Origin: Gemmatimonadota bacterium
GTDB lineage: Bacteria > 4572-55 > J002
Length of the DNA stretch: 59,166 nucleotides
Reading direction: 5' to 3'
Assembly: GCA_003697105.1 (NCBI GenBank)
Contig: RFFQ01000138.1
Span: 1 to 59,166 of the forward strand
Position numbers and translations under genes: made by a program
Part shown: positions 1 to 17,006 of the stretch, in pieces
How positions within the stretch are numbered: the stretch's first letter is position 1
Layout: each line of letters begins with the position of its first letter
Notes under the pieces: model-generated
Databases searched by the model: none
Seen by the model: only the letters and a program-made list of their open reading frames with translations
Told to the model about the DNA's origin: nothing

Positions 1-3000
1 ACCATCAGTTTGACCCACAGCTATGATGCCGACCTCGATATTTATCTGATTAGCCCTGCCGGTACGCGCGTGGAACTCTCCACCGATAATGGCGGGAGTG
101 GTAATGACTATCTCAGCACTGAATTTGATGATGAAGCAAGCACGCCGATTACCAGCGGATCGCCACCCTTTACCGGCACCTTCCGGCCAGAAGGTGCGTT
201 GAGTGCGCTAGATGGGGAATCTATTACCGGGGATTGGACACTAGAAATTACCGACCAATACAACTTGGATGGGGGTACACTAACCATATTTGCCCTCGAC
301 CTCCGTTACATCGACCCGCAACCCGGGACTGCCCTCGATTTTGATGGGATCGATGATGTGGTCACGGTGGCAGATAACAATGTGCTCGATTTAAGTTCCA
401 GCGGAACATTAGAAGCCTGGATTTATCCCACTGTCACCAATAATTATGGCGGGATCATTCATAAAGGGGATCAACCCGATTTTAGCGATGAAGCCTATAC
501 CTTACAACTATGGAATGATGACCGGGTAGCGTTTGCGATTGTCAATTCCGGTGGTACCAGCCAAACCCTATTTTCCACCTCCACATTGACGGCGAACCAG
601 TGGTATCATGTCGCAGCAACGTGGGATGCCAGCGGGATGTCTATCTACTTGAACGGTACATTGGATGCCTCGAACAGTACCGCGATAACGGCACGGAACA
701 GTGCCGGAGGATTGAATATCGGTGCCCAATTGAATGATGCCAGTTATCCCTTTAGCGGGCAAATTGAGGAAGTCCGGTTGTTTAACACCGCCCGCACACA
801 AAGTGAGATTCGCGAAAACATGCATCTGACGTTGGGTGGCTTCGAGACCGGTTTAGTTTCCTATTGGCAGTTGAATGATGCCTCCGGTTCCACTGCCCGC
901 GATGTAAAAAATGCACAGGATGGCACGCTCAACAACATGAACAATGTGGATTGGGTGACCTCAACAGTTGCAACGGGTGGCGGTACCAGCAACACCCAAA
1001 CACCCCCGACTGGTGCCAGTGCTATCACCTTTACCGGCACAGGAATAGTGGCAAATTTTACGGCGAATTCTGCCGCCGACCCCATCGTTGCTACCCGGAT
1101 CAATCTGATGCCATACGCCCCACCAACCGGTCAGGATACCGTTTTTGGCAGTCAGTATTGGGTGATCAATCGCTTTGGGAGTGGCACGTTCAGCGCCAAC
1201 ATGGATTTTACGCTGGCAGATGATCTGAATGCCGTCGATGCCGCCAATCCAAACCGTATCCAACTGTTTGCGCGGGGGAACCGTGAATTTGGTACATGGA
1301 CATTGGTTGCCAACGCCACTGCAGTCAATGAGTTGACCGAAACGGTCACCTTTAACGGGATAACTCAATTTGACCGGCAATTTGTGATCACCCGTTCGAC
1401 AGATATGTATTATGCCAGCAGCACAACAACCCAAAATTCAAATAATGTGTTACAAAACAGTCTCGATCAGCAGATCATTGGGATCGAAATTGTGATGGAT
1501 GGGACAACAAATCCCCTGAGTGTTACCCAGTTTGACCTGAACACCACCGGTACAACGAATACAGCGGACATCGCCAATGCGAAAATCTATTACACCGGTA
1601 CATCCAGCACCTTTTCCACCACCAACCAATTTGGCTCGACCATTGCCGCACCGAACGGTTCGTTTACTATTACGGGGTCTCAGGCACTTAGCGACGGGAC
1701 AAACTACTTCTGGTTGACCTATGATGTTACTGCTGGGGCAACAATCGGGAATCAAATCGATGCGCAGTGTACCGCCTTTGAACTAAACGGTACACGTACC
1801 CCCACGGTCACTGCTCCTGCCGGTGCACGCACCATTGTGGGGACTCCCGATGATTTTCCCGGTTACGCGCTTGATTTTGATGGCGTGGATGATAATGTCC
1901 AAATCCCAGACGATAATTCACTCGATTTAACCAGCACGTACACCGTCGAAGCGTGGATCAATCCGGTCAGTTGGGGTGAAAATAATCGAGGACGGATTGT
2001 AGATAAAAATGTGTACCGGTTTATGCTTCGCAACAATGGCAATTTATGGTGGCGCAGTACAACCGGCGGTTCGGTGCGTACCTCATTTAACAATGTGATT
2101 AATTGGAACCAGTGGCAACATGTGGCGGTCATCTGCGATGGGAGTTCGGTGGAATTCTATGTCAATGGGGTACTTAGCAGTAGCGGACAATCCGCATTAA
2201 CCCTAAGTGCGAGTACCAGTAACCTCTACATCGGCAATAATGGCGGCACTAATAGCACTTTTGAAGGGAAAATTGATGAAGTTCGTATTTGGAATACCGC
2301 CCGCTCGGTGCAAGATTTACGCGAAAATATGCACTTGACCCTCGTAGGGACGGAACCCGGTTTGGTTAGCTACTGGCAGTTTAACGAAGGAACCGGCTCC
2401 ACGACAAGCGACCCCATCAGCGGCAACGATGGTACCCTCAATAACATGGATGCCGCCGATTGGGTAGCTTCTACGGTTGCCACCGGCGCTGGTGCCAGTG
2501 CGACCGCCCAACCAGCAACGGGTGCCAGTACCACCACATTTACTGGGACGGGTGTTTCCATGCGATTCACCACAAACACCGCCTCTGACCCAATTGTGGT
2601 GACCCGAATTGATCGGACACCGAATCTCGTTCCAAGTGGTACGTTCACCGTGTATGATTCGCAATATTGGGTGATCCATCGCTATGGATCCGGCACATTT
2701 GATACCGATTTGATCTTGACCGTTGCCGAAGATTTGACCTCTCTGGAAGCCGCTTACCCCGAACGCCTTAGCCTTTACCGGCGGGATGCCACCTCAGATG
2801 GGGCGTGGACATTAGTCGGTACCGGAACAGAAGTCAATGCGGCAACCGATGAGGTCACGTTTAGCGGTATTACCACCTTTGGGCAATTTTTGGTAGTGCG
2901 AGACATTTATAATGTCAATATTTGTGGGAATGTGACCGCAGATTCCAGTTGGGTTGCAGATACCGTGCGTATCTCCTGTGATGTGACGGTATTGGATGGG

Positions 3001-5775
3001 GTCACATTGACCATTGGCGCCGGTACATACGTGGAATTTCAGGATCATTATAAATTGAATGTCCAAGGGCGACTTTTAGCCAGCGGTACGGCGACGGATT
3101 CGATCACCTTTACCGTGCCGGTAGCCCAGCAAAGTACCGGTTGGCACGGTATCCGGTTCGATCAAACACCCGCAACCAACGATACCTCGCGCATTCAGTA
3201 CTGCAAATTTGAGTACGGTCATGCCACCGATGGGAATCCGAATTATCCCGATACAGAAGATGATCATGGCGGTGCGTTGTTTGTTAAAGGGTTCTCAAAA
3301 TTGATTGTGGAATACTCGCGGTTTGTGAATAATCAAGCTGAATTTGGCGGCGCAATCATGTTGCGTGATACGTCTAACATTGTTATTCGCAATTGTACGA
3401 TTAGCAACAACCAAGCAACCAGTTCCCTGCCGTTTTTTGGATCGATGGGGGGTGGCATTTTTTGCTATCGCTCCAGTCCAATTCTCAGCTATAACACGAT
3501 TGTCAATAATTCGGCAGATTGGCATGGAGGTGGTGTTGTCTGCCATAGCGGATCAAATGCAACGATTACCAACAATACAATCGGGTATAACGTCGCCAAT
3601 GCCTTTTATGGAGGCGGTCTCGCGTGCTTTTTCGATTCCGATCCCGTTTTGACCAATACAATTCTATGGGGCAATACCTCTGCCGCTCTGGATAGTAACG
3701 AGGCATACATTGCCGAATTTGATTCCGATCCGCTCTTCATCAATTGCAACGTACAAGGCGGTATTTTTGACCCCGAAGGACGCCGGATCAAATCCAATCG
3801 AGCCACATTACGAGGAGGACATTTACGCCACGCCGATAATATCGATGCCGACCCCATGTTTGTCCGCCCACCCGCCGGAGCAGGTGTTGATTATAATGGC
3901 TTAGCCGCCGATTGGTCGTTAGTGGCAGAATCCCCCTGTATTGATGCCGGTTTTGAAGGTGATGTGCCACCCCCCGGCGGAGAACCCCGCGTTGATATGG
4001 GTTCGTATGAGTTTGTTCCCGACCGGTCCCAGTCAGTACAGGGCTTGGGCACCTCACTCGATGAAAATTTCATCCGCGGTACCGGATCAGCCATTGCCGC
4101 CACGGCTGGAACAATAGATGCCAACGTGGAATTAGTATTGGAAGACCCCCCGTTGCCGGAGTATCTCCCTCATGTGGCGCGGTTTTGGCGAGTCGAGATC
4201 GATCAGCACTTACGAATATCGCCGTGCGCCTATTTACGATTTTATTATCCAAGGAATGCCTCCGCGGCATTTGAAGGCGCACCTACCATCTATCACCGCC
4301 ACGGTAAAATCTGGTATCCCCTACCGACTTCCACGGAGCAAACCGTCGGACAGTCACATTATGTCCAAACGCTCCAACCCGTTTGTTCGTTTTCTGAATT
4401 TACTGTTGCGGATCAGCCGCCAATGTTTGATATTAGGGTCGATACCGAACCCTTGCTGGATCATCCATCGTCCGGTCAAGTGGAGCATTGTTTAGCCGTT
4501 GAGGTTGATCAACAAGGCATTATCTATGAAACTACCATCACCGACCCGGTTGTCGATGTGAATTACTACGTCTCACCGGATTCTATCGTGAACGTAACGG
4601 ATATGGTGACGGTCAGCGCACCGGCAACGATGGATGGTTTAAGCACCATCTGCCTTATGTATGACTTGAATGACCCTCGCTTGCCGGAAACCGACTACGT
4701 GACCCTACGAGGCGAATTTCAGATAGCTGGGCTGAATTTGTCACCCCAAACAGTTGACTTTCGGATTTTTGTCCTAGATGCCGAGAACGAATTTCAAATT
4801 GCGGATTTCAACGGGGATGGCTGTGTGGAAAGCACAGATTTGCTGACCTTGCTTTACGCTTACGGCTCGCAACCGGCAGATGACAATTGGAATTCGCAGG
4901 TAGATATTGGGGTCGCCGGTGTATATGATGTTATCGGGCGTGATGCCCAAGTGGGCTTTGCGGATTTACTCCGCTTTGCCAGTTACTATGGGATGTGTGA
5001 TAATGCGCCGTTGGTGTGGCACATGGCGCCCGAAATGATGCCGGCAAAACATGCCGGTACAACGAAAAGCGCGCTCCCGCATCTGAATCTGCAACCCCAG
5101 CGGGTCTCCCCCAACCGCATGAGCGTGGATCTGGATGTGGCGGCAGTTACAGACCTGTATGGAGCAAGCCTCAACCTCCACTACCCAGCGGAGCAATTGC
5201 GCGTGGTGCAGGTCACAGAAGGGGATTTCTTGCAGGCAGAGGGTGTCCCAACCTTCTTTTACCAGCAGGCAGAAAATGGTGTCATTCAAATCGATGTCGC
5301 TCGGTTGGGGAATGTGAGCGGCAAGCCGGGAACAGGCACGTTGGCACGGGTCACCTTTGACGTGTTACGTGGCGGCGAATGGTCATTAGAGGTCCAAGCG
5401 GTAAATGCAGTAAATGCGGATTTTCAATCGCTAAACCTGCAAAGCTATCGCTTACAGGGTAATGCCGGTGAGCCGCTAAAACCGGCAATCCCCCAACAGT
5501 ATGGTCTCGCCCAAAATTACCCGAACCCATTCAATCCGGTGACAACAATCCGGTACCAACTCCCGCAGAATGATGTGGTCACGTTGCATGTGTACGATAT
5601 TGCCGGGCGGCTGGTGCGCCGGTTGTTGGAACGCGAAGTTCAGGAGGCGGGCTACTATCGGTTACAATGGGATGGAACGGATGACCGTCACCGCCCGCTT
5701 TCATCGGGTATGTACATTTATCGCTTGGAAACACCGCAGTTTCAATCGACAAAAACCATGATGTTACTCCGTTAA
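1..5775 (+). CDS. Large modular secreted/surface protein, 5' partial (proprotein-convertase P domain, 2x LamG, BNR-associated N-like domain, right-handed beta-helix, dockerin-like, cohesin-like, FlgD-Ig/T9SS-type C-terminal domain)
   Basis: Frame is open from base 1, so the gene starts outside the window. P domain 'DLDIYLISPAGT...GDWTLEITD'; two LamG units 'ALDFDG..D...W.HVA....G.I.EVR'; GGA/GGG-FxxN beta-helix repeats; 'ADFNGDG.V...DL' EF-hand-like pair; C-terminal 'QNYPNPFNP.TTIRY.L...WDG.D..SG.Y.YRL'. Confidence 0.85.
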   Translation, partial: TISLTHSYDADLDIYLISPAGTRVELSTDNGGSGNDYLSTEFDDEASTPITSGSPPFTGTFRPEGALSALDGESITGDWTLEITDQYNLDGGTLTIFALDLRYIDPQPGTALDFDGIDDVVTVADNNVLDLSSSGTLEAWIYPTVTNNYGGIIHKGDQPDFSDEAYTLQLWNDDRVAFAIVNSGGTSQTLFSTSTLTANQWYHVAATWDASGMSIYLNGTLDASNSTAITARNSAGGLNIGAQLNDASYPFSGQIEEVRLFNTARTQSEIRENMHLTLGGFETGLVSYWQLNDASGSTARDVKNAQDGTLNNMNNVDWVTSTVATGGGTSNTQTPPTGASAITFTGTGIVANFTANSAADPIVATRINLMPYAPPTGQDTVFGSQYWVINRFGSGTFSANMDFTLADDLNAVDAANPNRIQLFARGNREFGTWTLVANATAVNELTETVTFNGITQFDRQFVITRSTDMYYASSTTTQNSNNVLQNSLDQQIIGIEIVMDGTTNPLSVTQFDLNTTGTTNTADIANAKIYYTGTSSTFSTTNQFGSTIAAPNGSFTITGSQALSDGTNYFWLTYDVTAGATIGNQIDAQCTAFELNGTRTPTVTAPAGARTIVGTPDDFPGYALDFDGVDDNVQIPDDNSLDLTSTYTVEAWINPVSWGENNRGRIVDKNVYRFMLRNNGNLWWRSTTGGSVRTSFNNVINWNQWQHVAVICDGSSVEFYVNGVLSSSGQSALTLSASTSNLYIGNNGGTNSTFEGKIDEVRIWNTARSVQDLRENMHLTLVGTEPGLVSYWQFNEGTGSTTSDPISGNDGTLNNMDAADWVASTVATGAGASATAQPATGASTTTFTGTGVSMRFTTNTASDPIVVTRIDRTPNLVPSGTFTVYDSQYWVIHRYGSGTFDTDLILTVAEDLTSLEAAYPERLSLYRRDATSDGAWTLVGTGTEVNAATDEVTFSGITTFGQFLVVRDIYNVNICGNVTADSSWVADTVRISCDVTVLDGVTLTIGAGTYVEFQDHYKLNVQGRLLASGTATDSITFTVPVAQQSTGWHGIRFDQTPATNDTSRIQYCKFEYGHATDGNPNYPDTEDDHGGALFVKGFSKLIVEYSRFVNNQAEFGGAIMLRDTSNIVIRNCTISNNQATSSLPFFGSMGGGIFCYRSSPILSYNTIVNNSADWHGGGVVCHSGSNATITNNTIGYNVANAFYGGGLACFFDSDPVLTNTILWGNTSAALDSNEAYIAEFDSDPLFINCNVQGGIFDPEGRRIKSNRATLRGGHLRHADNIDADPMFVRPPAGAGVDYNGLAADWSLVAESPCIDAGFEGDVPPPGGEPRVDMGSYEFVPDRSQSVQGLGTSLDENFIRGTGSAIAATAGTIDANVELVLEDPPLPEYLPHVARFWRVEIDQHLRISPCAYLRFYYPRNASAAFEGAPTIYHRHGKIWYPLPTSTEQTVGQSHYVQTLQPVCSFSEFTVADQPPMFDIRVDTEPLLDHPSSGQVEHCLAVEVDQQGIIYETTITDPVVDVNYYVSPDSIVNVTDMVTVSAPATMDGLSTICLMYDLNDPRLPETDYVTLRGEFQIAGLNLSPQTVDFRIFVLDAENEFQIADFNGDGCVESTDLLTLLYAYGSQPADDNWNSQVDIGVAGVYDVIGRDAQVGFADLLRFASYYGMCDNAPLVWHMAPEMMPAKHAGTTKSALPHLNLQPQRVSPNRMSVDLDVAAVTDLYGASLNLHYPAEQLRVVQVTEGDFLQAEGVPTFFYQQAENGVIQIDVARLGNVSGKPGTGTLARVTFDVLRGGEWSLEVQAVNAVNADFQSLNLQSYRLQGNAGEPLKPAIPQQYGLAQNYPNPFNPVTTIRYQLPQNDVVTLHVYDIAGRLVRRLLEREVQEAGYYRLQWDGTDDRHRPLSSGMYIYRLETPQFQSTKTMMLLR

Positions 5776-5789
5776 TTGAAAGGATAGGC

Positions 5790-7349
5790 ATGGCAAATTA
5801 CCCGTATCAAATCACCACGGAACTGTTTCAAATTCCCCATGAGGATACGTTTTTACTCTATTCCCCCCTCAAGCGGGTGGCATTTCGGGTCAACGAGGCG
5901 ACAATTGACCTGTTAGTGCGTATTCAACGGCAGGAAGAACTTCCACAAACGCCGTCGGTGCAAAAAACCCTCACGTTTTTTGAAGAGATTGGGATTCTGA
6001 ACGGTGAGCCAGACCAACGACCCGCTCATGCCGCCCCACCGGGGAGTGAGTTTCGTCCTACGACCGTAACGCTCTTTCTCACATCGGAATGTAATCTGGG
6101 TTGTGTGTACTGTTATGCCAATGCCGGTGTACAAAAGCTGTTTTTATCGTGGGATATCGCCAAAGCCGCCATTGATTGGGTAATTGAAAATGCACGAGCC
6201 ACGGAAAAAGATAAAATTTTGCTCGATTTTCATGGCGGGGGTGAACCAACCCTCTGTTGGGATGTACTCACGCGGAGTGTGGAATATGCCGAAGCGGAAA
6301 CCCAAAAGTATGGGCTAAAGCTGGATGTATCATTGGCATCGAACGTAATGATCAACCACAAACAGGCACAATGGATTGTAGAACATGTCCACTCCATGAC
6401 CGTTTCGATGGATGGAATGCAAGACATTCAGGACTTACAACGCCCAACAGTTGCCGGAAACGGCTCATTTGAGCGCGTGGTGAGCATCCTTAAGTTTTTT
6501 GATACCCATGATTTTAACTATGGCATCCGAGCAACCATCACCCATTACAATGTGGAGCGAATGACCGAAATGGTGGAATTCTTCGCGGCGACATTCAAAG
6601 CCACTCAATGGAATTTTGAACCCATGTTTGCCGCCGGTCGGGCGTTAGTCACCGGTTCCCCCGAACCGTTTGAAGAGGTGTTTATTCGGGAGTTTCGGCG
6701 GGCACGGGAACGCGCGAAAGAACTGGGACGAAATCTCGCCTATTCCGGGAATATGATCGAACGTATCTCCAACACGTTTTGTGGTGCGCCGGGCAAAAAT
6801 TTCTCGATCACGCCGGATGGCTATATCAGCGCCTGTCACGAAGTCAATAAAGCCACCGACCCCAAAGCCAATCTGTTTATTTATGGGGAGTACGACCCAG
6901 AAAAAAAGACATTTGTGATCCATACCGATAAACTGGATCGCTTGCGCACGTTTACGGTCGATCAGGTCGAATATTGTGACGGCTGCTTTGCCAAATGGCA
7001 CTGCGCTGGAGATTGTGTGGTTAAAGTGGTCAAAACAACGGGGGATTATCACAAACGCACTTCAGAATACCGCTGCCAAATGAACCGGGAATTGACTAAA
7101 GACCGCATTCTGGAACTGGCAAACCACCGGATTATGGTTTCTTTGGAAGAAGATGATGTGTTTTTGCTAAACCCCACAGCGGCTCAGGTACACCAATTGG
7201 TCGAACAAGGCTATCCTCGGGAGGCAATCATCGATGAAATGTGTTCCTTCTATCCAGAGATGTCCCGAGATGTGATCGAGGCAGATGTCGGTGAAATTTT
7301 AGCAGACCTTGCCGAAATTGGTATGTTATCGGATATTTCAACATTGTAA
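5790..7349 (+). CDS. Radical SAM/SPASM peptide maturase with fused C-terminal PqqD/RRE domain
   Basis: CxxxCxxC 'CNLGCVYC', 'FHGGGEP', SPASM cysteines 'C..ITPDG..SAC' and Cx2Cx5Cx3C 'CDGCFAKWHCAGDC'; C-terminal 'LNPTAAQVHQLV...IIDEMCSFY...IEADVGEILADLAEIGML' resembles PqqD; RBS AAGGA. Confidence 0.92.
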   Translation: MANYPYQITTELFQIPHEDTFLLYSPLKRVAFRVNEATIDLLVRIQRQEELPQTPSVQKTLTFFEEIGILNGEPDQRPAHAAPPGSEFRPTTVTLFLTSECNLGCVYCYANAGVQKLFLSWDIAKAAIDWVIENARATEKDKILLDFHGGGEPTLCWDVLTRSVEYAEAETQKYGLKLDVSLASNVMINHKQAQWIVEHVHSMTVSMDGMQDIQDLQRPTVAGNGSFERVVSILKFFDTHDFNYGIRATITHYNVERMTEMVEFFAATFKATQWNFEPMFAAGRALVTGSPEPFEEVFIREFRRARERAKELGRNLAYSGNMIERISNTFCGAPGKNFSITPDGYISACHEVNKATDPKANLFIYGEYDPEKKTFVIHTDKLDRLRTFTVDQVEYCDGCFAKWHCAGDCVVKVVKTTGDYHKRTSEYRCQMNRELTKDRILELANHRIMVSLEEDDVFLLNPTAAQVHQLVEQGYPREAIIDEMCSFYPEMSRDVIEADVGEILADLAEIGMLSDISTL

Positions 7350-7381
7350 CGGGCTGTAACCACCCTAAATTTGAGGTAGGC

Positions 7382-7972
7382 ATGTCTGATGAAAAACGAC
7401 CTGATGATCGGTTAGGTCGCGTTGAAAAATCACGCGCTCCAGCAGATCGTCCGCGGGATCGGCAAACCCCTGCCCCCCCGGAGCAAAAATCGCTAGAGCG
7501 TGACCCGCGCTTACATCGCCGTGAGGAGGAACGGCGCCCCCCCCGCCGGGAGTATATCCGCAAACGCGAACACGACACCAACCCTCGCCGGGATTATCTG
7601 CCGGATTGGCAGGATCAAGATGTCCCGCGTGACCCCAGACAACACCCGGCTTTGGAACGAAACGTAACCCCAGAGCCGTTGGAGCGGGAAGCAGAACCCC
7701 GTCCCGGAGGCCGCCCCCGTTACGAAAAACCAACGGTACGGCGGTATAGCGGTCCCAAACGCGGTGAAGGTGATATCCGGTGCAGTGTTTACTGTGCCAG
7801 TCACGCGGGTGATTGGCAGGTTCCGTGTCCGCCGCAGTGTTTGTCGGTGAACTTTTGCCCCACACAATGCGGATATTATGTTTCCTGCCCCTCTGATGCC
7901 CCGGGCGGCGGCTGCTCTCCACAGGTGATTTGTAGCCCGGATTCATGTAGCCCAGTTTGTGCCTCGAATTAG
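7382..7972 (+). CDS. Putative RiPP precursor peptide (long Arg/Pro/Glu/Asp-rich leader, Cys-rich core)
   Basis: RBS GAGGT; lies 32 bp after the rSAM gene; YxxPx(L/V)-like 'YEKPTV' at 7721-7738; 11 Cys confined to residues 134-193, none in the first 133. Confidence 0.75.
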   Translation: MSDEKRPDDRLGRVEKSRAPADRPRDRQTPAPPEQKSLERDPRLHRREEERRPPRREYIRKREHDTNPRRDYLPDWQDQDVPRDPRQHPALERNVTPEPLEREAEPRPGGRPRYEKPTVRRYSGPKRGEGDIRCSVYCASHAGDWQVPCPPQCLSVNFCPTQCGYYVSCPSDAPGGGCSPQVICSPDSCSPVCASN

Positions 7973-7983
7973 TGGCAACCGTC

Positions 7984-8823
7984 ATGGTGAATCTGTATTT
8001 CCGGTTTTGGGATTTACAACTACGCCTCTGTTTGGGGGATAACCACCTGAAACCCTTTCTGGTGGCACTGTGGGGAATGTATCAAAAAACCGTGTTGCAG
8101 TCCGGTGTGACGACACTAACCTACCATCTCCAAACGGATTCATCCGACGGACGAACACGCTATGCTCTACAAGTTGAGGAGAATGAGCCTAGCCCGTGGG
8201 TCTCTTTTGATGATATTTTTGGGTTATTAAACCATCAATTAAGCTATAACTTGATTAATACCTGTGTGTCCCGGTGCTTGTTTCACAGTTCGGCGATAGT
8301 AACCCCGGACGAACAGGTGATCATGTGTGTGGGCGATGAAGAACAAGGGAAAACATCTCTCGTATTAGGGCTTGTGGAGCGAGGCTATCGCTTTTTTAGT
8401 GATGATATTGTCGCGTTAAACCCTGAAACCACTCAGGTAGAACCCCTTTTAGTCGGTTTGCCGGTGGAAAAGCACACTCTGGAACGATTTCCGTCATTTG
8501 CCGGTCTGAAAACGAAAATGCCGTTTCTCCAGTTGAATCACGGGATTCCCTGTGCCGAACCGGCGGCTTATCCGATTTCCCGTGTGATTTTTGTCGAACG
8601 GGCAATGGAAGGGGAAACGCAACTAAAACCGGTCTCCCTAGCGGAGGCTGCCGGGTTGTGGTTTCAAAATTGGCGCAACCATTATCTCTACCGGCAACCA
8701 CCGCTGGATGTGGTAGCCGGTCTCGCCCAACAGACCCCGGCATTTCGATTAACACAGGTTGATTTGAACCATGCCGTGGAGCAGATCGAACAACTCGAAA
8801 CCGGTAGGGGATTTTTGCCCTAA
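7984..8823 (+). CDS. HPr kinase-related P-loop kinase (lasso-peptide kinase/HprK-related type)
   Basis: 'FHSSAI', Walker A 'GDEEQGKTS', 'GYRFFSDD'. Start is ATG 7984 or GTG 7972, which overlaps the precursor stop. Confidence 0.75.
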   Translation: MVNLYFRFWDLQLRLCLGDNHLKPFLVALWGMYQKTVLQSGVTTLTYHLQTDSSDGRTRYALQVEENEPSPWVSFDDIFGLLNHQLSYNLINTCVSRCLFHSSAIVTPDEQVIMCVGDEEQGKTSLVLGLVERGYRFFSDDIVALNPETTQVEPLLVGLPVEKHTLERFPSFAGLKTKMPFLQLNHGIPCAEPAAYPISRVIFVERAMEGETQLKPVSLAEAAGLWFQNWRNHYLYRQPPLDVVAGLAQQTPAFRLTQVDLNHAVEQIEQLETGRGFLP

Positions 8824-8829
8824 TAACTC

Positions 8830-10071
8830 TTGTTGGGGGTCTATACCCGTGATTTTTACCGCGCCTTTTCCGCCGGGGGTTGGATGTCTGGTCTTGCCCA
8901 AAACCCAGAATTAGCAACGATCTTTTTGCTGGCTCAACCCCAACGCCGTGAAGAGACCTATCAACAGCTTGTTCAATACGTACAAGTGGGATTAAATTGG
9001 CAGCGTTTTTTACGGCAGGTCGAGGTGTTACGGTATGCCGCATGGTGTGGTCATCAATTTGCAGGATATGGTCTGGAGAAAGCAATACCAGCAGACGTTT
9101 TGGCATATATTCGTGACCAATATGTCTGGAATGCCTACCGGGGCAAGGTGCTTCTGAATGCCGCAAACGCGGTGACGGACACGTTGAAATCCGCCGGGTT
9201 AGATGTTCTCTGGTTAAAAGGAATTGCCGCGGCTTCGTTATGTTACGGGGATATACGCCTCCGGCCCATGATGGATGTTGATCTCCTCATCCGGGAGGAC
9301 CAGATACATCTGGCACACGATCTGTTAATAAATGCCGGATGGGGGTATGCGGGAGCACCGCGCGACGTTTGGCACTATCGATCTTATCAGATACATACGT
9401 ATAATCATGCTTATCAACGGGTTGTGCCGGTGGATTCTGGAATGGAGCGGGTTTGGGTGGAACTCCACTGGCGTCCGGCAAGCCAACGGCTTGTCCCCCA
9501 ACTGCCTCCAGACGCATTTTGGGACGCAGTCGGTGTGGCTAAGGATACCCAGCACATGGAAACCCTTTCTCCCGAAAATTTTTTGATACATCTATGTATT
9601 CACCAAGCAAAATCAAATTTTCGCGCGCACTTGAGCCGTTTAGACCTCGCACTGCTGGTGGATCAATATGTCATGGATTGGGATCAAGTTGCCCGCAAAG
9701 CAGAAAAATGGGGATTACAACGGATGGTCACCGCCGCATTAACAGATGTGCAAGTGGTATTCGGAAGTAAGATTCCGCCGATCGACCAATCAGCGAGGCT
9801 ATCGCTTGGGGTGAGATACCTCCAGCAACAAGGACGGAAAGCCACTTACACGTTGTTAGATCGATTTGACATTACCCCCTACCAATTGCTCTTTTTGGAG
9901 AGATGGTCAGACCGATTTCGGTTTTTGGGGTCCGTGTTGTTTTACCCCAATTCACATGACCTAAAGCGATGGGCATTATCCCCCTCAACTCAAATATTAT
10001 ATATGATCATAAAACCGGTTCGTTTATGTGTTACGCTTTTCGTGAGGATTTTTAGCTTTGTATTTCGGTAA
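8830..10071 (+). CDS. Nucleotidyltransferase family protein (NTP_transf_5-like)
   Basis: 'WLKG', 'RPMMDVDLLI' (DxD), 'VELHW', 'HLCIH'. Start uncertain (TTG 8830 or ATG 8884). Confidence 0.85.
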   Translation: MLGVYTRDFYRAFSAGGWMSGLAQNPELATIFLLAQPQRREETYQQLVQYVQVGLNWQRFLRQVEVLRYAAWCGHQFAGYGLEKAIPADVLAYIRDQYVWNAYRGKVLLNAANAVTDTLKSAGLDVLWLKGIAAASLCYGDIRLRPMMDVDLLIREDQIHLAHDLLINAGWGYAGAPRDVWHYRSYQIHTYNHAYQRVVPVDSGMERVWVELHWRPASQRLVPQLPPDAFWDAVGVAKDTQHMETLSPENFLIHLCIHQAKSNFRAHLSRLDLALLVDQYVMDWDQVARKAEKWGLQRMVTAALTDVQVVFGSKIPPIDQSARLSLGVRYLQQQGRKATYTLLDRFDITPYQLLFLERWSDRFRFLGSVLFYPNSHDLKRWALSPSTQILYMIIKPVRLCVTLFVRIFSFVFR

Positions 10072-12520
10072 TGGTAAGAATTATCCAGTAGAAGTCACAA
10101 CATCGTCATATCTTGAGGCGGATTTTGATGTCCGCAAATATGTACGGATGTTGTGGCGACGGCGGTACATCGTATTGCTGTTATTTGTGCTTATTTTTGG
10201 GTTTAGTACTTATCGTGCACTAACCCAAAAAGTAACACCGGTGTATCGATCGACGGTTTATCTCGAAGTGGATGAAAAAGAGACGAATATCCGTCTTTTG
10301 CCGCAGTTCAGTTCGGTGCGGCAACAGTCCATTTATTGGGGGAGTCCGGAAGGAAAAATTATTGCGGAGGTGTTGAGTACTTCTGTCATTGAAGAAGTCG
10401 TTCAAATGCTGGATTTGGATAAAGCCGTGCATTCCATCTCGCCCAATTTATCCTTTTCGATGACGAATATTCAGAGCCACAATGCCCCGTTGGGGACCTA
10501 TCGCGTCCATATTTTAGATAATCAGCATTATGTGGTTTACGATACCGCCAATCGCGAACTGGGGCGAGGCATCAGCGGGGTACCCTTTCAGCATGAATTT
10601 TTTGAGTTTACCATTTCCAACATTGAGGGACCGCCCCAAAGTGAATTTTATTTTACGTTGTACCCGCTTCAGCGAGCGGTCAATTCGGTGAGAGCCGCCA
10701 CCCATGCCCAAGCAACAACACGGGCGGCAATTCAGGATAATGTTGCTGGCGGAGGAATCGCCGGAGCCGCCAGTGCCAAGCGCTCCCGTAAAGATGCGGC
10801 GATTCAGGATGCGGGCATTGTTCAAGTGGATGTGTATTGGCAAGACCCCGAAACGGCTACCCAAATCGCCAATGCTCTGGCAGACGTGATCCGGCATCGC
10901 GAACTCGAAGATAAACGGTTAGAACATACCAAAACTCGGGAATATATCGAACGTCAGTTGAACACTTATACCCAAAAATTGAAGGCGTCAGAAGAAGCAC
11001 TCCAGACCTATAAAGAGCAAAATCGAATCTATGAATTGGATGCAATTGCTCGGGATGTCACCTATAAAGTGTTTGATATTGAAGCTGAAATCAGCCAAAT
11101 TCAAGCCGAACGAGAACGAATTAAGCTCTTTCGGGAAAAAGTTACCAGTGGCTTACAACCGGAAGATTATTTGTTGATTAGTGCGATCCCATTTCAAGAT
11201 GAGGAAGGTTACGGATATTGGGATGTACTCAGCCAATTGACCTCGCAATTGATGGAGCTTGAAATCCAACTTCCGCTAAAGTTAGAGGAAATGACCGAAA
11301 ACCATCCCGACATTATCGCCTTAAAAAATCAGATCCAACAAGTTCGGTTGCGATTGCAACAGCAAGTTGATGCGCGGCTTACGATGCTGGATTCCCGCGA
11401 AGAAAGCCTCCGGCTACAACTGTTGCCGTACCAACAGCAACTGGAAACCTTTCCGTTGAAAGAGGTTGAACTCGCCCGGTTGGAACGCGAATTTCGACTC
11501 AATGAGGAGATTTATTCCCTCCTCACCCGCCAGCATGAACAAACCCGGCTGGCAGAAGCCGCGATTGTTAATGATATTCAGGTGTTAGATTATGCCAGTA
11601 TCCCAACCGCCCCGATTGGTGGGGGACCCAATCGCCAAAAAGCCATTTTACTGGGGGCACTATTGGGGATCGGTGTGGGGTTAGGGGTCGCATTTCTCCT
11701 GGAATTTCTGGATAATACCATCCGTGAAACGGATGAGATTGAACGCCACATCCAATTACCGGTTTACGGTATGATCCCCCAAATAGAATCTATCAAAAAT
11801 GGCCGGCGGACTCATAAAGCAAAAGCAAGATTTGAAACACTGGTTACGCATCTAGCACCAAAATCGATACCGTCTGAAGCGTTCCGATCACTTCGAACGA
11901 ATATTCAATTTTTTGATCTGTCACGCCAGTCCGAAGCAATTTTGATCACCAGTGCCGTTTCAGAAGAGGGAAAATCCACAACGTGTGCTAATTTAGCAAT
12001 TACTACCGCTCAAGTGGGCCGGAAAACGCTTTTAATTGATGGAGACCTGCGTAAACCGGTTATTCATCACCTCTTTGAGGCACCCAGTGAACCCGGTCTG
12101 ACCGATGTCTTATTGGGCCGATACACATGGCAGGAGGTCATTCATTCTACCTCCGTGCCGGGCTTAGATATTATATGTTCCGGGACCCAGCCACCAAACC
12201 CTTCCGAATTGCTGAGTTCACCAGAATTGAAATCCCTGATTACCACCCTTAAAGAGCACTATGATATGATCTTATTCGATTCACCACCGGTAATACCGGT
12301 TGCGGATAGTGTTGCGTTGAGTACCAATGTGGATGGGGTATTATTAGTGGTATCCGCGGGTAAAACAGACCGTCATGCGCTCCAGCGCACACGTGATTTA
12401 TTGCACAATGTAAATGCCCGGATTATGGGAGCTGTGTTGAATAATGTTCGCATCAACGAGATATATGGTTATCAAAAACATTACTATTACTACGACACGA
12501 AAAAACCGGTGAAGGTATAA
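10058..12520 (+). CDS. wzc: Wzc-like polysaccharide co-polymerase / BY-kinase (tyrosine autokinase)
   Basis: Two TM segments around a periplasmic coiled coil; 'EAFRSLRTN', Walker A 'EEGKSTT', A' 'IDGDLRKP', B 'LFDSPP'; C-terminal Tyr cluster 'YGYQKHYYYYD'. Confidence 0.93.
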   Translation: MYFGNGKNYPVEVTTSSYLEADFDVRKYVRMLWRRRYIVLLLFVLIFGFSTYRALTQKVTPVYRSTVYLEVDEKETNIRLLPQFSSVRQQSIYWGSPEGKIIAEVLSTSVIEEVVQMLDLDKAVHSISPNLSFSMTNIQSHNAPLGTYRVHILDNQHYVVYDTANRELGRGISGVPFQHEFFEFTISNIEGPPQSEFYFTLYPLQRAVNSVRAATHAQATTRAAIQDNVAGGGIAGAASAKRSRKDAAIQDAGIVQVDVYWQDPETATQIANALADVIRHRELEDKRLEHTKTREYIERQLNTYTQKLKASEEALQTYKEQNRIYELDAIARDVTYKVFDIEAEISQIQAERERIKLFREKVTSGLQPEDYLLISAIPFQDEEGYGYWDVLSQLTSQLMELEIQLPLKLEEMTENHPDIIALKNQIQQVRLRLQQQVDARLTMLDSREESLRLQLLPYQQQLETFPLKEVELARLEREFRLNEEIYSLLTRQHEQTRLAEAAIVNDIQVLDYASIPTAPIGGGPNRQKAILLGALLGIGVGLGVAFLLEFLDNTIRETDEIERHIQLPVYGMIPQIESIKNGRRTHKAKARFETLVTHLAPKSIPSEAFRSLRTNIQFFDLSRQSEAILITSAVSEEGKSTTCANLAITTAQVGRKTLLIDGDLRKPVIHHLFEAPSEPGLTDVLLGRYTWQEVIHSTSVPGLDIICSGTQPPNPSELLSSPELKSLITTLKEHYDMILFDSPPVIPVADSVALSTNVDGVLLVVSAGKTDRHALQRTRDLLHNVNARIMGAVLNNVRINEIYGYQKHYYYYDTKKPVKV

Positions 12521-12665: not shown

Positions 12666-13952
12666 CTACTTCTGAATAATCTTTTCCTGCCTTAATTCTA
12701 CTTTAATTTTACCGTTATCAACTTCAATGAGGGCGTCATCCGGGTTTTGCCCCGCATCGCGGAGGCGTTGTTCGATGAGGGTTTTGATTTCCGCATCGGT
12801 TTTTCCTTTCAATTCCGCGGGGTCTATCAGCTCTTGGGTGATGTGTAGCTCCGGCTCAGGGGTATCTTCTGCCCCTGCCCCCACAAAGACCCGAACTTCT
12901 TCAGTGTGGACGGTTTGACCCTCATTACCGGTAGAGGAACTAATGGTTTCAATCTGCACATGATCCCCTTTGCGGACGACAATTTGGGGTTCTCCTGCTT
13001 GACCTTCTTCCGTACCGGTCCACTCCCCACCGTTTTGTAACGATTGGGCTTTGAGCCGCTCTGCCACAATCGCCTGAACTTCCGCTTCGGATTTACCTTC
13101 CAAGTCCCCATCATGGAGCATGAGTGAAAATGAATACGCATTTTGCCCATGTTTGGGGTTAGACTCCCCATCCGTGATTGACATCACAATGGTTTGTTGA
13201 CCTTCACGCTCAGGCTGAGGAGGAATCGAAAGCCGCATTCGTCGCTCACCGTTTTCTTCCTCATATTCAACGTGAGCTTCATGAATACCAGCCGCTTCTA
13301 ATTGGCGTTGCATCTCTGCCACCACATCGCTACTGCTCATATGTTGTGTGTTGATTTCGATACGGAATACCGATTTCAGGGCGGCGGCATACATCGGGCG
13401 CGTAACCGTTTCTTGTAAAGGGAGCATTTTTACCTCACTAACTTGGGATAACGATTCTAAATCCTGCCGCCACAATTCCGCTTGTTGGGCGGATACCCCC
13501 ACGGCATTCATCAAATACATTGTGGAGTGCTGACCGTTATTGATATTGTGTGAGACCGACAAATTGGATTCATCCATCCAGTCAAAGTGTGTTACCAGCC
13601 GGTTTGCCGCTTCTGGGGTGTCGTTTACCGTCCATGAAAGGACGTAGCCAACAATATCTTCCTGTTCAACCGGCATGGTGCACGCCACCAAGATCATCAG
13701 CATCAGAACTGCCAAACTGGCAAACCGCAACCGGTGGGATTTAATGTAGGTTATCATAGGGAATGTCCTCCGTTTAAGAGATGATTCGTTCATTCGGGAC
13801 TGATAGGCACTGACCTGACGTAACCAGGCATCCGTTTGGTCAAAGGACGCACGGTGGTCATCATTTTTCAAGGCAGACCAGTACGAACTCCATTTGGAAT
13901 CAGTCCAGTCGCCCGTCGATGTTGACTTTCGCCACCAATTGAAGCGTCTCAT
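12666..13952 (-). CDS. Membrane-anchored/lipoprotein partner (putative anti-sigma factor) of the upstream ECF sigma
   Basis: Overlaps the sigma factor stop; ATG 13952 has AGGAGA; second in-frame ATG 13757 has GGAGG; hydrophobic segment ends in lipobox-like LVAC. Confidence 0.6.
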   Translation of the reverse strand: MRRFNWWRKSTSTGDWTDSKWSSYWSALKNDDHRASFDQTDAWLRQVSAYQSRMNESSLKRRTFPMITYIKSHRLRFASLAVLMLMILVACTMPVEQEDIVGYVLSWTVNDTPEAANRLVTHFDWMDESNLSVSHNINNGQHSTMYLMNAVGVSAQQAELWRQDLESLSQVSEVKMLPLQETVTRPMYAAALKSVFRIEINTQHMSSSDVVAEMQRQLEAAGIHEAHVEYEEENGERRMRLSIPPQPEREGQQTIVMSITDGESNPKHGQNAYSFSLMLHDGDLEGKSEAEVQAIVAERLKAQSLQNGGEWTGTEEGQAGEPQIVVRKGDHVQIETISSSTGNEGQTVHTEEVRVFVGAGAEDTPEPELHITQELIDPAELKGKTDAEIKTLIEQRLRDAGQNPDDALIEVDNGKIKVELRQEKIIQK

Positions 13953-14523
13953 GTTCAATGTCTCCTATCAGGGGTTTAAACGTTGTGGTATGCAACCGTT
14001 GGGACTCTTGAGCCGTCATCCGGCGCCGCATTTTTCGCCGGGCACGGCTCAACCGTGATTTAATGGTGGAGGCGCTCTTTTCCTGCTGAATATGCTGAAT
14101 TTCCTCGATAGAAAATCCGGCGATCTCAAACAGCAAAATTGCCGCACGCTCTTTGTCAGACAAGCTACTGAGGGCTTGCCGCAACATCAGTTTTGTTTCA
14201 TCGGATTCCGCCCGATCATACACTGGGGGCATCTTCGGTAGATTCTCATCATCTGTTGCCGGAAATTCCAGCGGTAAAAATCGCTTCCAGAAGTGACGTC
14301 GTACTACCGAATGAAACTCGTTGGTGATTATCTGAAAGAGCCACGGTTTAAATCGGGTTGGGTCTCGTAAGGTATTAAACTTTTCGTACGCCTTGAGTAG
14401 GGCTTGCTGGAGCACATCTTCTGCTTCTTCCGCCGAAAAACGGGCGCACAAGGAACGGCAATAAGTTAATGCCTCGGAGTAATGTGGCTTTAACGCCTCA
14501 CTAAAGTGATCCACAAGGGACAT
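13900..14523 (-). CDS. ECF sigma-70 family RNA polymerase sigma factor
   Basis: Region 2 'AEDVLQQALLKAY...FKPWLFQI', region 4 'GFSIEEI...STIKSRLSRARR'. Confidence 0.9.
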   Translation of the reverse strand: MSLVDHFSEALKPHYSEALTYCRSLCARFSAEEAEDVLQQALLKAYEKFNTLRDPTRFKPWLFQIITNEFHSVVRRHFWKRFLPLEFPATDDENLPKMPPVYDRAESDETKLMLRQALSSLSDKERAAILLFEIAGFSIEEIQHIQQEKSASTIKSRLSRARRKMRRRMTAQESQRLHTTTFKPLIGDIEHETLQLVAKVNIDGRLD

Positions 14524-14579
14524 GGTTCAAATCCGGATTTGAGTTAAGAGAATCAACGGTTGCTTCTGAACTCACTCTT

Positions 14580-14608
14580 TAGACGAAGAACAGCCTTGAA
14601 AAGTCGCA
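14580..14608 (-). promoter_or_regulatory. Putative ECF-type (autoregulatory) promoter
   Basis: Minus strand TGCGAC-N17-CGTCTA upstream of the ECF gene. Confidence 0.45.
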
Positions 14609-14646
14609 AAAAAATTAACGTGGTTTTTTTGAGGAGGAAAGTTAGG

Positions 14647-17006
14647 TCATCGCGGTTCACAACGCGCTTCTAAATGTGCCATAAAATCGGTAATGGCATG
14701 TTGCGTTTGCTGGTAGCATTCCTGTAAACGCGGTAAAAGAGCTTTTATCTCCGTGATACCGTCCATGTGTTCCGTTTGTTCGCATAAAATGGCTAGACAC
14801 TTCACCCCCAAATTGGAACTGGAGCCTTTTAAGGAATGCAACATCCGGCGGGCGGTTTTGAGATCACCTTCGGCTAGGCTTTTTTCAGTTTTAACTAGAT
14901 ACTCTTCGGCTTCGGGCAAATACATTTGGAGCAGTTCGATCAAAAAATCAGGACTACCATTACCCATGGAAAGGATGTCATCTAGGATATGATAATCTAA
15001 CAGGTCGCGTGGGGGGTGGGGTTTGGCGGTAGCATGGGTGTGGCTCTCAGTGACGTGGTGTCCCCAGCGTTCTAAAACTTGCACCAGTTCCATCAGTTGA
15101 ATAGGCTTACTAAGATAATCATCCATTCCGGCGGCTAAACAGCGCTCCCGGTCTCCCTGCATGGCATTCGCCGTCATGGCAATAATGTGAGGTCGGTTTT
15201 CTGGGGGATATTGTTCAAGGATGCGTTTCGTTGTTTCCAGACCATCCATTTCGGGCATCTGCATATCCATAAAAATAAGGTCATAGGGTTGGCGCTGCAG
15301 TGCCTCTAAAACCTCGATGCCGTTGCCGGCAACATCTGCCCGATAACCCATTTTTTCCAACATTCGCTGTACCAATCGCTGGTTGACGGCATTATCTTCC
15401 GCCAATAGAATATGCATAGGTAGGCGTTTCGCCAACGTTTTGTCAAATCGGGTCTCGACCACCTTTTGCGGTTGGGGGCGGAAAATGCGGGTATCCGCAA
15501 AGACAGCAATAATGGTATCAAATAGTGTGATAATTTCACCGGTTTCGTGATTGCCGCCTGAAATAGCTCACGCATACCACTAGTAAGTGTCGTCGAACTG
15601 AGGAGGATCAGCGGAAGGCGATGTCGAGGGAACGTCTCCCGGATGTGGTGGGCAAGCTCTAACCCGTCCATTCCCGGCATGTGTAAATCAAGAATTGCGA
15701 GGTCAAATACCGCATCCTGAAGGGCTTGAATCGCCTTTTCACCGGATGCCACCGCATGGGGACGCATCTTCCACCGTTCAAATTGGCGTGTTAAAATCCG
15801 GCAATTGGTGGGGTTATCATCCACGATCAGAATGCGTTTACCCGCCAATTCGGGGGCATCATCCACCGGAAACCGGGAAGCTTTGACCTCGGCGGATTGT
15901 GTGGGAAGGGTAAAATAGAAGGTTGATCCACTACCCAGACGGCTCTCCACCCAGATGGTGCCCCCCATCAGTTGAACCAAACGGGAACAAATGGCCAGCC
16001 CCAAACCAGTGCCGCCAAATTTACGGGTGATGGAGGAATCCACTTGCGAAAAGGACTGAAACAACCGGTCAAGCCGGTCTTCTGGAATACCGATTCCAGT
16101 ATCTCGCACGGCAAATTGAAGCACGACACCCGTTTCGGTACGGGAAGCAACCGTGACTGAAACAAACACTTCCCCTTTTTCTGTGAATTTAATCGCATTC
16201 CCCACCAAATTGACCAACACTTGCCGTAGCCGGGTAATGTCACCTGTAATACCGGTCGGAACATCCGAATCGATCAGATACAGCAGATCAAGCCGTTTTT
16301 CTAAGGCTTTGGTAGAGAGGAGATCGAATGTCTCTTCAATGCACTGGTGCAGATCGAAGGGCACATGCTCCAATTCCATTTTGCCGGATTCGATCTTGGA
16401 AAAATCAAGAATATCGTTGATGATCGCCAGCAAGGTTTCACCACTCACCCGGATAGCCTCCACATATTCTTGCTGTTCCGCCGTGAGGGGAGTCCCCCGT
16501 AACAGACTGGTCATGCCGATCACCCCGTTCATGGGGGTGCGGATTTCATGACTCATTGTGGCTAAAAAGCTGGATTTCGCTTTGGTGGCGGCTTCCGCGG
16601 CGGCTTTTGCTTCCCGCAAAGAGGCTTCGATCTGCTGGCGTTCCCGAAGTTCCTGCTCTAAATTTTCGTTCAGTTGCTGGAGCGTACGTGTCCGCTCTTC
16701 TACAAGGTTTTCAAGGTGACGATGTTGTTGCCGTAGTTCTTCCTCCGCTTGCCGGCGATGATAGATATTGTACAGTAGGGCCAGAATCATCAACATAAAG
16801 ACCAAAAACACGCCAATAACATCCCACATCAAATCTTCATAGCGATGAAAGATAAACGTCAGTAGATCGATCAGCCGTTCAACCGGAATTTCGGATATTT
16901 GAGAAGAGTTCCCTCCTGTTTGTGCCTTGCTTGTTGATACTATAGCCAGTAGAATCCAACTAACCCATAACCGCCCAACCTCCCCCATGAAGCGTTGGTT
17001 ATGCAT
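14647..17006 (-). pseudogene. Hybrid sensor histidine kinase (HisKA-HATPase-REC-REC-Hpt) split by a 1-bp frameshift near 15525
   Basis: 'SHEIRTPMNG', 'NLVGNAIKFT', 'DTGIGI', 'GGTGLGL' and first REC in 15306..17006; second REC and Hpt ('HSLKGSS') in 14647..15462. Adding one base at TCACA^CTATTT joins them as ...[16 protein letters not shown]...VETRFDK. Confidence 0.8.

Follow-up and report, generated by a model that had tools for sequence, protein, structure and literature searches.

A four-gene unit lies near the start of contig RFFQ01000138.1, a stretch of 59,166 nucleotides (nt) from the Gemmatimonadota bacterium assembly GCA_003697105.1 which was analyzed in full and is called the window here. 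All four genes are on the forward strand. They encode a radical S-adenosylmethionine (radical SAM)/SPASM maturase with a C-terminal PqqD domain of the RiPP recognition element (RRE) type (5790..7349, 519 amino acids (aa)), a protein of 196 aa (7382..7972, including the stop codon, from direct translation), an HprK-related kinase (7984..8823, 279 aa), and a PF14907 nucleotidyltransferase (8830..10071, 413 aa). A sequence-only reading of the same DNA had described the open reading frame (ORF) at 7382..7972 as an unusual peptide precursor with a long charged leader, a lasso-style YxxPxV motif, and a core rich in Cys and Ser. The ORF was found to be a real gene, and it probably encodes the precursor of a peptide-maturation unit in which radical SAM cross-linking and kinase tailoring are joined.

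The precursor ORF starts 33 nt past the maturase stop codon and ends 12 nt before the kinase ATG. Direct reading of the sequence places a Shine-Dalgarno-like GAGG (7373..7376, forward strand) 6 nt upstream of its ATG. Residues 1-113 contain 26 Arg, 19 Pro, 14 Glu, and 12 Asp, which make up 63% of this part, and no Cys. The motifs LER[DNE] (at residues 38, 91, and 100), RDPR (40 and 83), and PRR[ED]Y (54 and 68) recur in the leader. The Cys-rich core (residues 134-196; 7781..7969, forward strand) is 63 residues long, with 11 Cys, 10 Ser, four CxxxC motifs, and three CSP motifs. Every number given by the sequence-only reading was confirmed by script or translation, namely the 196-aa ORF, its single Met at position 1, the Cys-free R/P/E/D stretch with the listed motifs, the core counts, and the starts of YEKPTV (nt 7721) and of the core (nt 7781). 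The description of the leader as repetitive held only in part. Its complexity is low, yet Tandem Repeats Finder returned no array over the precursor region, and the DNA repeats found there were just six two-copy repeats of 12-16 nt; the leader is low-complexity and not truly repetitive.

Further searches revealed that the precursor family is rare, with three precursors among about 15 billion proteins, in a phylum that has three species genomes. A word-based search with the whole precursor returned only itself among 263 candidates. When the last 87 residues were used as the query in a HMMER pass over 1.84 billion representatives, one true relative was found (P0123, 134 aa, E 1.8e-4); another match, the Cys-free repetitive 476-aa protein P0122 (phmmer E 3e-5), was dropped as compositional. 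A profile search of 5.8 billion clusters, with 401 candidates scored, added P0124 (140 aa) as the third member. In a single BLASTP comparison, the precursor and P0123 were 41% identical over residues 113-195 (E 6e-15). Within the phylum, the precursor occurs in the window's own genome and was not found in the other two. A metagenome scan with the precursor alignment matched eight stretches, none of which was confirmed, and the Protein Atlas yielded nothing for the precursor (best feature score 0.77).

In the alignment of the three members, R113, Y114, P117, Y122, K126, E129, G130, and R133 are invariant, as are ten Cys columns. The C-terminal tail SCSPVCASN (7943..7969, forward strand) is also conserved, with S188, C189, S190, P191, V192, C193, and S195 identical in all three. 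MAFFT had gapped the N-termini; in an ungapped reading, the first 14 residues share seven identities of the form MS...RP..RL.R. The sequence-only reading had proposed the conservation of YxxP and of the Cys spacing as a check, and both are kept in P0123 and P0124. Because the two homologues retain the N-terminus, the Y-x-x-P-x-(V/I)-x-x-Y motif, the Cys pattern, and an SCSPVC(A/S)S tail, the ORF is taken as a real gene. That low-complexity, G+C-rich DNA left this frame open by chance is scarcely credible. Such a frame would fit with the absence of any Pfam or NCBIfam match for the precursor and with an antisense ORF of 206 codons (7365-7985, reverse strand), which is open across the whole precursor gene and is probably a by-product of composition. 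It would not account for a Cys pattern and two motifs kept in two homologues, nor for the tight fit within a row of same-strand genes with GAGG ahead of the ATG. Moreover, the lone variant within the ORF (H45, CAT>CAC) is synonymous in the precursor frame. This variant was seen in Logan contigs from two runs of one hot-spring metagenome study, which span 5700-10100 without an indel; these contigs may be the window's own source and are therefore not independent. Over this interval they carry seven variants: five synonymous, one intergenic, and one non-synonymous. The last is L228P in the kinase (window 8639, run X1).

The leader was found to contain two conserved motifs. The first, KRPDDRL (residues 5-11; 7394..7414, forward strand), contains the RP..RL identities, which the sequence-only reading had overlooked. 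It matches the N-terminal motif of a wider family of precursors, termed class-A and described below: in composition-preserving shuffles, the window's KRPDDRLG scored against the class-A motif with p = 0.0003, and P0123 and P0124 scored with p = 0.02-0.03 in the same test. The second, YEKPTVRRY (residues 114-122; 7721..7747, forward strand), is the proposed RRE-docking site, and its Tyr, Pro, and final Tyr (Y114, P117, and Y122) are the invariant residues. The pattern Y..P.[IV]..[YF] appeared in 0.07% of 50,000 composition-preserving shuffles of the leader and eight times in 1.06 million residues of background six-frame segments. In the window family it lies 20-21 residues before the first Cys.

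The leaders of P0123 and P0124 are about 75 residues long, compared with 133 in the window precursor. Since the roughly 58 extra residues are missing from both homologues, they are best read as a lineage-specific insertion between the two conserved motifs rather than a conserved module. This does not favor the earlier suggestion that the long extension is a solubility or targeting module. Nor is its length without precedent, as precursors of the LPP family are described as 35-200 aa long (Popov et al., 2026; PMC13381572) and CrpA, the substrate of the SPASM enzyme CrpC, has an N-terminal domain (Dieter et al., 2026; PMC13692751). The length of 196 residues raises the alternative that the product is a modified small protein which keeps its charged N-terminal part and has its own function, instead of a leader-cleaved natural product. 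CrpA provides an example of a protein-sized substrate of a SPASM radical SAM enzyme (PMC13692751), and the four-gene unit contains no peptidase or exporter. We regard this alternative as decidedly unlikely. Except for the two motifs, little of the N-terminal part is conserved, and its length varies from about 75 to 133 residues, so a leader or spacer fits better than a functional domain; the related short peptides discussed below also adjoin Peptidase_C25 genes.

The 11 Cys of the core are at positions 134, 138, 149, 153, 159, 163, 169, 178, 184, 189, and 193. The four CxxxC motifs stressed by the sequence-only reading are present, but the unit that stands out statistically is C-x-x-(D/E/N/Q). 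In each of the three homologues, six Cys per core are followed by D/E/N/Q at +3, against 1.5-2.1 expected. For the window, none of 5000 shuffles reached this count (1.5 expected), and the other two cores gave p values of 0.005 and 0.004. No excess of these residues was found at +1, +2, +4, or +5. Among 18 class-A cores, Cys followed by D/E/N/Q at +3 was counted 94 times versus 27.5 expected. On these counts, the core appears better read as C-x-x-(D/E/N/Q) units than as CxxxC. A C-X-X-Q/D motif has been noted in CrpA, where CrpC installs ranthionine links (PMC13692751), and the core may similarly carry thioethers of the ranthionine type from Cys to D/E/N/Q. It is also plausible that serines are kinase targets, with S188, S190, and S195 as candidates by their invariance. 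In the LPP family, the reported target of the kinase LppK is Ser3 of the core rather than a C-terminal Ser, and it is polyphosphorylated (PMC13381572).

The maturase scores 38.4 bits with Pfam Radical_SAM and also matches Fer4_12 and PqqD (37.5 bits). Its highest NCBIfam scores, all below cut-off, were obtained with the SCIFF (129.2 bits, cut-off 425), PapB (128.9, cut-off 340), and nif11 (129.1, cut-off 518.7) models; the CXXX-repeat maturase (74.8, cut-off 350), TIGR04463 (66.2, cut-off 525), and ScmE (47.1, cut-off 400) models scored lower. A profile built from 20 maturase homologues found CteB (5wgg) as its best match in the PDB (E 1.9e-47). [quoted passage not shown] In the 20 aligned homologues, C101, C105, and C108 of the CxxxCxxC motif are invariant, as are C331, C349, C396, C399, C405, C409, and C429 of the SPASM region. 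Residues 1-92 (5790..6065, forward strand) form an RRE-like domain in the AF2 model, with strands at 13-17, 20-25, and 30-34 followed by helices at 36-46 and 55-66, which resembles the RRE of CteB. These residues alone have no NCBIfam match, and comparison of this domain across groups gave no clear outcome.

The second recognition domain is the PqqD/RRE fused to the C-terminus of the maturase (residues 448-513; 7131..7328, forward strand), which scored 41.6 bits with PF05402 in the genome search. Against NCBIfam it remains below cut-off with lasso_PqqD_Strm (26 bits, cut-off 70) and PqqD_rel_X (20 bits, cut-off 35). Among solved structures, the lasso RRE TbiB1 alone (5v1u/5v1v; E 0.003, residues 18-84 of 91) is related to it at E<0.01. 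RREs of the LPP and lasso systems are reported to bind [Y/W]xxPx[L/V/I/F/A] leaders; the crystal structures 9x8z and 9x90 reveal RRE pockets that accommodate the side chains of Tyr/Trp, Pro, and Val/Leu, and the substitutions Y-16A and P-13A reduce formation of the RRE-leader complex (PMC13381572). The peptide-RRE complex, whose prediction the sequence-only reading had suggested, was modeled from PqqD residues 430-519 and precursor residues 100-140. The score was 0.40, compared with 0.01 for the best of three controls, with at least 81% contact agreement between runs and a partner pLDDT of at least 51. The score passes the mark, as did 116 of the 157 solved complexes and 2 of the 215 mismatched pairs. 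Its support is weak: with scores of 0.60 or lower, just 18 of those 157 passed, along with both passing mismatches. The earlier claim that YxxPxV docks on the PqqD/RRE is supported by a motif invariant in three of three members that recurs in the leaders of kinase- and PqqD-linked peptides, by a TbiB1-like domain, and weakly by the complex score.

Relatives of the maturase were then considered. At E<=1e-20, 179 proteins match it, the best being 44% identical, and among the 120 matches listed the window protein alone carries PF05402. Eighty genome loci around such relatives were collected. In 19 of the 80, the maturase is followed by a precursor from a single leader family (class-A), with an N-terminal KPDDR-type motif, a strand-like block, the motif F/Y-x-R/K-P-x-L/M-x-T-Y/F, C-x-C-(N/Q/D/E) repeats that form the core, and a C-terminal PVH. 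These precursors are without a Pfam or NCBIfam model; examples are L005:7335-7703, L006:7361-7744, L020:7301-7648, and L021:1963-2346. By PF05402 together with a purpose-built hidden Markov model (HMM), a PqqD-like ORF adjoins the maturase in 17 of the 19 class-A loci and in 23 of the 80 overall, mostly just upstream. From this, a separate RRE is a normal partner of this enzyme family, and the fusion in the window is a rearrangement of that theme. An earlier tblastn search of loci L003-L083 with the kinase, nucleotidyltransferase, PqqD, and precursor of the window had given no match at 1e-3. This test was too insensitive, because PF05402 and the HMM later found PqqD in 23 of the 80 loci and phmmer found a kinase and PqqD in L014.

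Several of the upstream PqqD-like ORFs (L004:5314-5874, L005:5522-5974, L006:5492-5986, L020:5483-5977) begin with a twin-arginine-like RR.FL and a hydrophobic stretch, which is odd for a cytoplasmic peptide chaperone. In two loci, the precursors (L019:3861-4235 and L024:7257-7739) keep the N-terminal KP(D/N)DR, have IPDKE.HLM as the second motif, and end in YWYPN. The idea that loci without the usual second motif also lack PqqD was rejected, as both have a divergent RRE-like ORF upstream. These two loci hint that the leader motif and the RRE change together.

The wider family bears on the earlier claim that the core cysteines are radical SAM substrates, which is supported indirectly, by the CteB-like family of the enzyme, by relatives lying beside Cys-rich precursors, and by the enrichment of C-x-x-[DENQ]. 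An alternative is that only the RRE, kinase, and nucleotidyltransferase act on the precursor, in an LPP-like manner, with the radical SAM enzyme uninvolved and the Cys serving in metal sites or disulfides. Four CxxxC motifs and many Cys-Pro pairs do recall metal-binding or disulfide-rich peptides, and the LPP system is described as working without a radical SAM enzyme (PMC13381572). We consider this very unlikely, as the RRE is fused to the radical SAM enzyme itself, relatives of this enzyme directly adjoin Cys-rich precursors, and the excess of D/E/N/Q after Cys is confined to +3.

Next to other maturases, a shorter type of peptide was found together with a kinase. By phmmer, the maturase of L014 is followed by a 42-residue peptide, an HprK-related kinase (67 bits on TIGR04352), and a PqqD protein whose best score, 41 bits on ScmD, is below cut-off. 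The same type of peptide lies downstream of the maturase in L013 and occurs in 10 of 55 genomes of L014's order, at up to five sites per genome. In L105 and L106 the order maturase, peptide, kinase, PqqD is repeated. The peptides of L014, L105, and L106 are 42-44 aa long with Y..P.I..Y, and short peptides with a Y..P motif span 42-51 residues overall. The fused PqqD of the window and the PqqD linked to the L106 kinase share 35% identity across 57 aa (E 7e-8), a closer match than that to a class-A upstream PqqD (E 0.002 over 33 aa). Another locus, L104:4836-12931 (G046:C58), combines a short Y..P.I..Y peptide with an HprK-like kinase, PF14907, and Peptidase_C25; its kinase gene is split by a group II intron with a reverse transcriptase/maturase/HNH ORF (5819-7816). 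Peptidase_C25 is also found upstream in L014 and is a candidate leader peptidase for the short-peptide family.

In total, nine distinct kinase-linked peptides carry Y/F-x-x-P-x-(I/V)-x-x-Y/F, with the first Cys 21-22 residues past the start of the motif. Seven of the nine have CSP within their last six residues, and CSP is present in the tail of the window family as well. A relaxed motif pattern with V allowed proved noisy, and its contingency table was set aside. The likeness between the window family and these peptides is at the level of motifs only.

The kinase of the window was read from ATG 7984; a TTG at 7957 is also open. It scored 46.1 bits with TIGR04352 HprK_rel_A (cut-off 200) and 19.9 bits, below cut-off, with Pfam Hpr_kinase_C, and it contains a Walker-A-like GDEEQGKT followed by SDD. 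Its structural neighbors in the Atlas are named HprK-related kinase A (TM 0.77-0.79), and in one neighboring Atlas cluster 59% of the members have PqqD. The nucleotidyltransferase scored 152.5 bits with Pfam NTP_transf_5 (PF14907) and is the single copy over cut-off in the genome.

Taken together, the following pathway is proposed for the four-gene unit. The leader would be bipartite, with an N-terminal RP..RL common to precursors of the wider radical SAM family and, 20 residues ahead of the first Cys, the motif Y-x-x-P-x-(V/I)-x-x-Y. The latter would dock, as lasso leaders do, on the B1-like PqqD/RRE at the C-terminus of the maturase, and RP..RL may be read by the N-terminal RRE that the maturase itself has; in CrpA, the first five residues are reported as the RRE recognition sequence (PMC13692751). 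The CteB-like enzyme would then link core Cys, most likely as thioethers of the ranthionine type to D/E/N/Q three residues downstream. The HprK-related kinase would phosphorylate a serine, for which the candidates are S188, S190, and S195 of the C-terminal tail, and the resulting phosphate may be further modified by the PF14907 nucleotidyltransferase, as in pseudomycoidin (PMC8498205). The gene, its conservation and motifs, the domain identities, and the synteny elsewhere were observed directly, and from them we infer the docking, each chemical step, the sequence of these steps, and the fate of the leader.

A more elaborate version, which we put forward tentatively, assigns separate roles to the two RREs. 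RP..RL would recruit the N-terminal RRE for the formation of multiple thioethers, and YxxPxV would recruit the fused RRE, which hands the substrate to the kinase and nucleotidyltransferase. The charged stretch would be a spacer that lets both RREs hold one chain, and the product would be a phosphorylated or phosphoglycosylated mini-protein of 63 residues with multiple cross-links, which in a thermophile could be linked with the cell envelope or exopolysaccharide.

Several findings weigh against the proposed pathway. The link of the precursor with the kinase and nucleotidyltransferase is drawn from this one locus and from analogy. Among the 80 related radical SAM loci, 79 have no kinase detectable with the window kinase as query and none has a PF14907 homologue. 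The kinase, PqqD, and maturase are all under the curated cut-offs of every named NCBIfam family. By Pfam scan, the four-gene unit contains no leader peptidase or exporter. As for docking, the PqqD-leader complex score is weak and may reflect the predictor's memory of lasso and LPP structures, since complexes of this kind have already been solved. AF2 confidence is low at maturase residues 447-462, the expected place of the RRE strands. A position-specific scoring matrix for the second motif chooses another site in the window leader (p 0.23), and the class-A leader HMM does not list the window leader at E<=10. When an HMM of the nine short peptides was run over 12,176 unrelated segments, P0123 came first but with E 0.059, P0124 ranked 35, and the window precursor was unlisted. 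Moreover, spacing of the C-x-x-C type could also suit metal binding or disulfides.

Some of these findings would equally fit a reading in which the radical SAM enzyme alone acts on the peptide, with the kinase and nucleotidyltransferase belonging to the adjoining Wzc/Wza polysaccharide locus and acting on another target. A gene for a Wzc-like polysaccharide tyrosine autokinase (10058..12520, forward strand; Pfam Wzz, GNVR, and AAA_31; NCBIfam eps_fam 195.6 bits), noted here as context only, begins within the end of the nucleotidyltransferase gene, and a Poly_export-like ORF comes next on the opposite strand. The scarcity of the kinase (1 of 80) and absence of PF14907 among related loci would be expected. 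In addition, a second metagenome scan, made with the kinase alignment, gave three HprK-like loci from 594 pattern matches; they adjoin large ORFs, which were not scanned with Pfam, and none has a radical SAM enzyme or motif peptide. This reading is nonetheless judged unlikely. In L014, L105, and L106 the genes again run radical SAM, peptide, kinase, PqqD, and in L104 they run peptide, kinase, PF14907. LPP clusters are themselves described as embedded in capsular polysaccharide loci, yet they act on peptides (PMC13381572), and the leader of the window precursor carries the motif bound by such RREs. We thus continue to favor the pathway in which all four genes act on the precursor.

The remainder of the window consists of housekeeping genes, and promoter and terminator scans were at chance level. 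Upstream of the unit, an ORF at 10-5775 (forward strand), possibly cut by the contig start, encodes a protein of at least 1921 residues and ends 15 nt before the maturase gene. It has an initial proprotein-convertase P-domain, Laminin_G_3, BNR-associated and beta-helix domains, and a type IX secretion C-terminal tail. Downstream, 12666-17006 (reverse strand) holds the Poly_export-like ORF, an extracytoplasmic function (ECF)-type sigma factor, a response regulator with Hpt, and a hybrid histidine kinase, which could regulate the polysaccharide/peptide region. Elsewhere in the same genome, contig C48 (L087:1-2673) has neighbors of the same kinds: a protein with a P_proprotein domain, a tandem pair of PqqD ORFs, of which one is extended at its N-terminus by a hydrophobic segment, and a Poly_export gene. 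Contig C9 (L088:434-2341) encodes an ATP-grasp protein, PqqD, and a Haem_bd protein.

Among characterized systems, the LPP family is the closest (Popov et al., 2026; PMC13381572). [quoted passage not shown] In the LPP family, however, the RRE is a discrete protein, whereas that of the window is fused to the radical SAM/SPASM C-terminus. LPP clusters are also described with an SpI-like leader peptidase and an MsbA-like exporter, neither of which adjoins the window unit: no SpI-like (SipW-type) peptidase or MsbA-like exporter was found among the Pfam matches of 43 window ORFs, a set in which ORFs under 150 aa beyond 20 kb were left out. The LPP leader consensus is YxxPxVLxHQxIxFETxxS, of which the window has only YxxPxV, followed by RRYSGPKRGEG, and the motif lies near the N-terminus of a 27-residue leader in LPP, compared with 113 residues into the window precursor. 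Furthermore, the window core is Cys-rich, unlike that of LPP, and LPP was described in Bacillota. In that paper, "radical SAM" appears nowhere in the main text and once as a column header in a supplementary table, and the main text does not name PF14907.

Thioether maturases of the CteB/SCIFF and PapB type share with the window maturase the best sequence and fold match (CteB), an N-terminal RRE-like domain, three sets of Fe-S Cys, and an adjacent Cys-rich core. Features of sacti- and ranthipeptide systems were likewise seen in the window, namely CxxxCxxC with SPASM Cys and an 11-Cys precursor adjoining the maturase. The window maturase differs in scoring 129 bits against cut-offs of 340-519 and in having a second, C-terminal RRE, and the unit differs in its 196-aa precursor, 133-residue leader, kinase, and nucleotidyltransferase. 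CrpC and CrpA (TIGR04463; Dieter et al., 2026; PMC13692751) resemble the window in that the substrate of a SPASM radical SAM enzyme is long and Cys-rich, repeats C-X-X-Q/D, and is recognized at its extreme N-terminus. CrpA, however, is archaeal and has ten 17-residue repeats and a folded N-terminal domain, its cluster as described contains no kinase or PqqD, and the window maturase scores 66 bits with TIGR04463 (cut-off 525).

Phosphorylated and phosphoglycosylated lasso peptides such as paeninodin and pseudomycoidin (PMC8498205) provide the third comparison: their B1-type RRE recognizes YxxPxL, a homologue of HPr kinase acts on their precursor in its linear form, and a nucleotidyltransferase adds hexose to the phosphate. 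In contrast, the window unit is without a B2 protease or lasso cyclase, as no such Pfam family was found among the neighboring ORFs, and its core lacks lasso features. Lasso kinases are reported to target a C-terminal Ser (PMC8498205), whereas the last residue in the window family is Asn or Tyr. Lastly, the NCBIfam HPr-rel-A system, SynChlorMet, and GeoRSP cassettes contain the same kinds of parts (HprK-related, PqqD, radical SAM/SPASM), and the kinases have their highest scores with HprK_rel_A, with all scores here below cut-off. No paper was located on these cassettes, nor one joining radical SAM/SPASM with an HPr-kinase homologue, in a literature search with most subscription journals outside its reach.

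If the proposed pathway is true, the unit would join radical SAM thioether cross-linking with RRE-guided serine (poly)phosphorylation, and possibly glycosylation, which have so far been described separately. A single ribosomal peptide would receive both chemistries, and a recognition domain would be part of the radical SAM polypeptide itself, which would provide a compact test case in which one leader addresses two recognition domains. The short radical SAM-peptide-kinase-PqqD loci L014, L105, and L106 would offer a simpler experimental entry, with a one-cysteine peptide. Finally, the C-x-x-(D/E/N/Q) rule, common to the window family and to the class-A precursors of 19 of the 80 loci, would provide a cross-link prediction for many orphan radical SAM/SPASM maturases.

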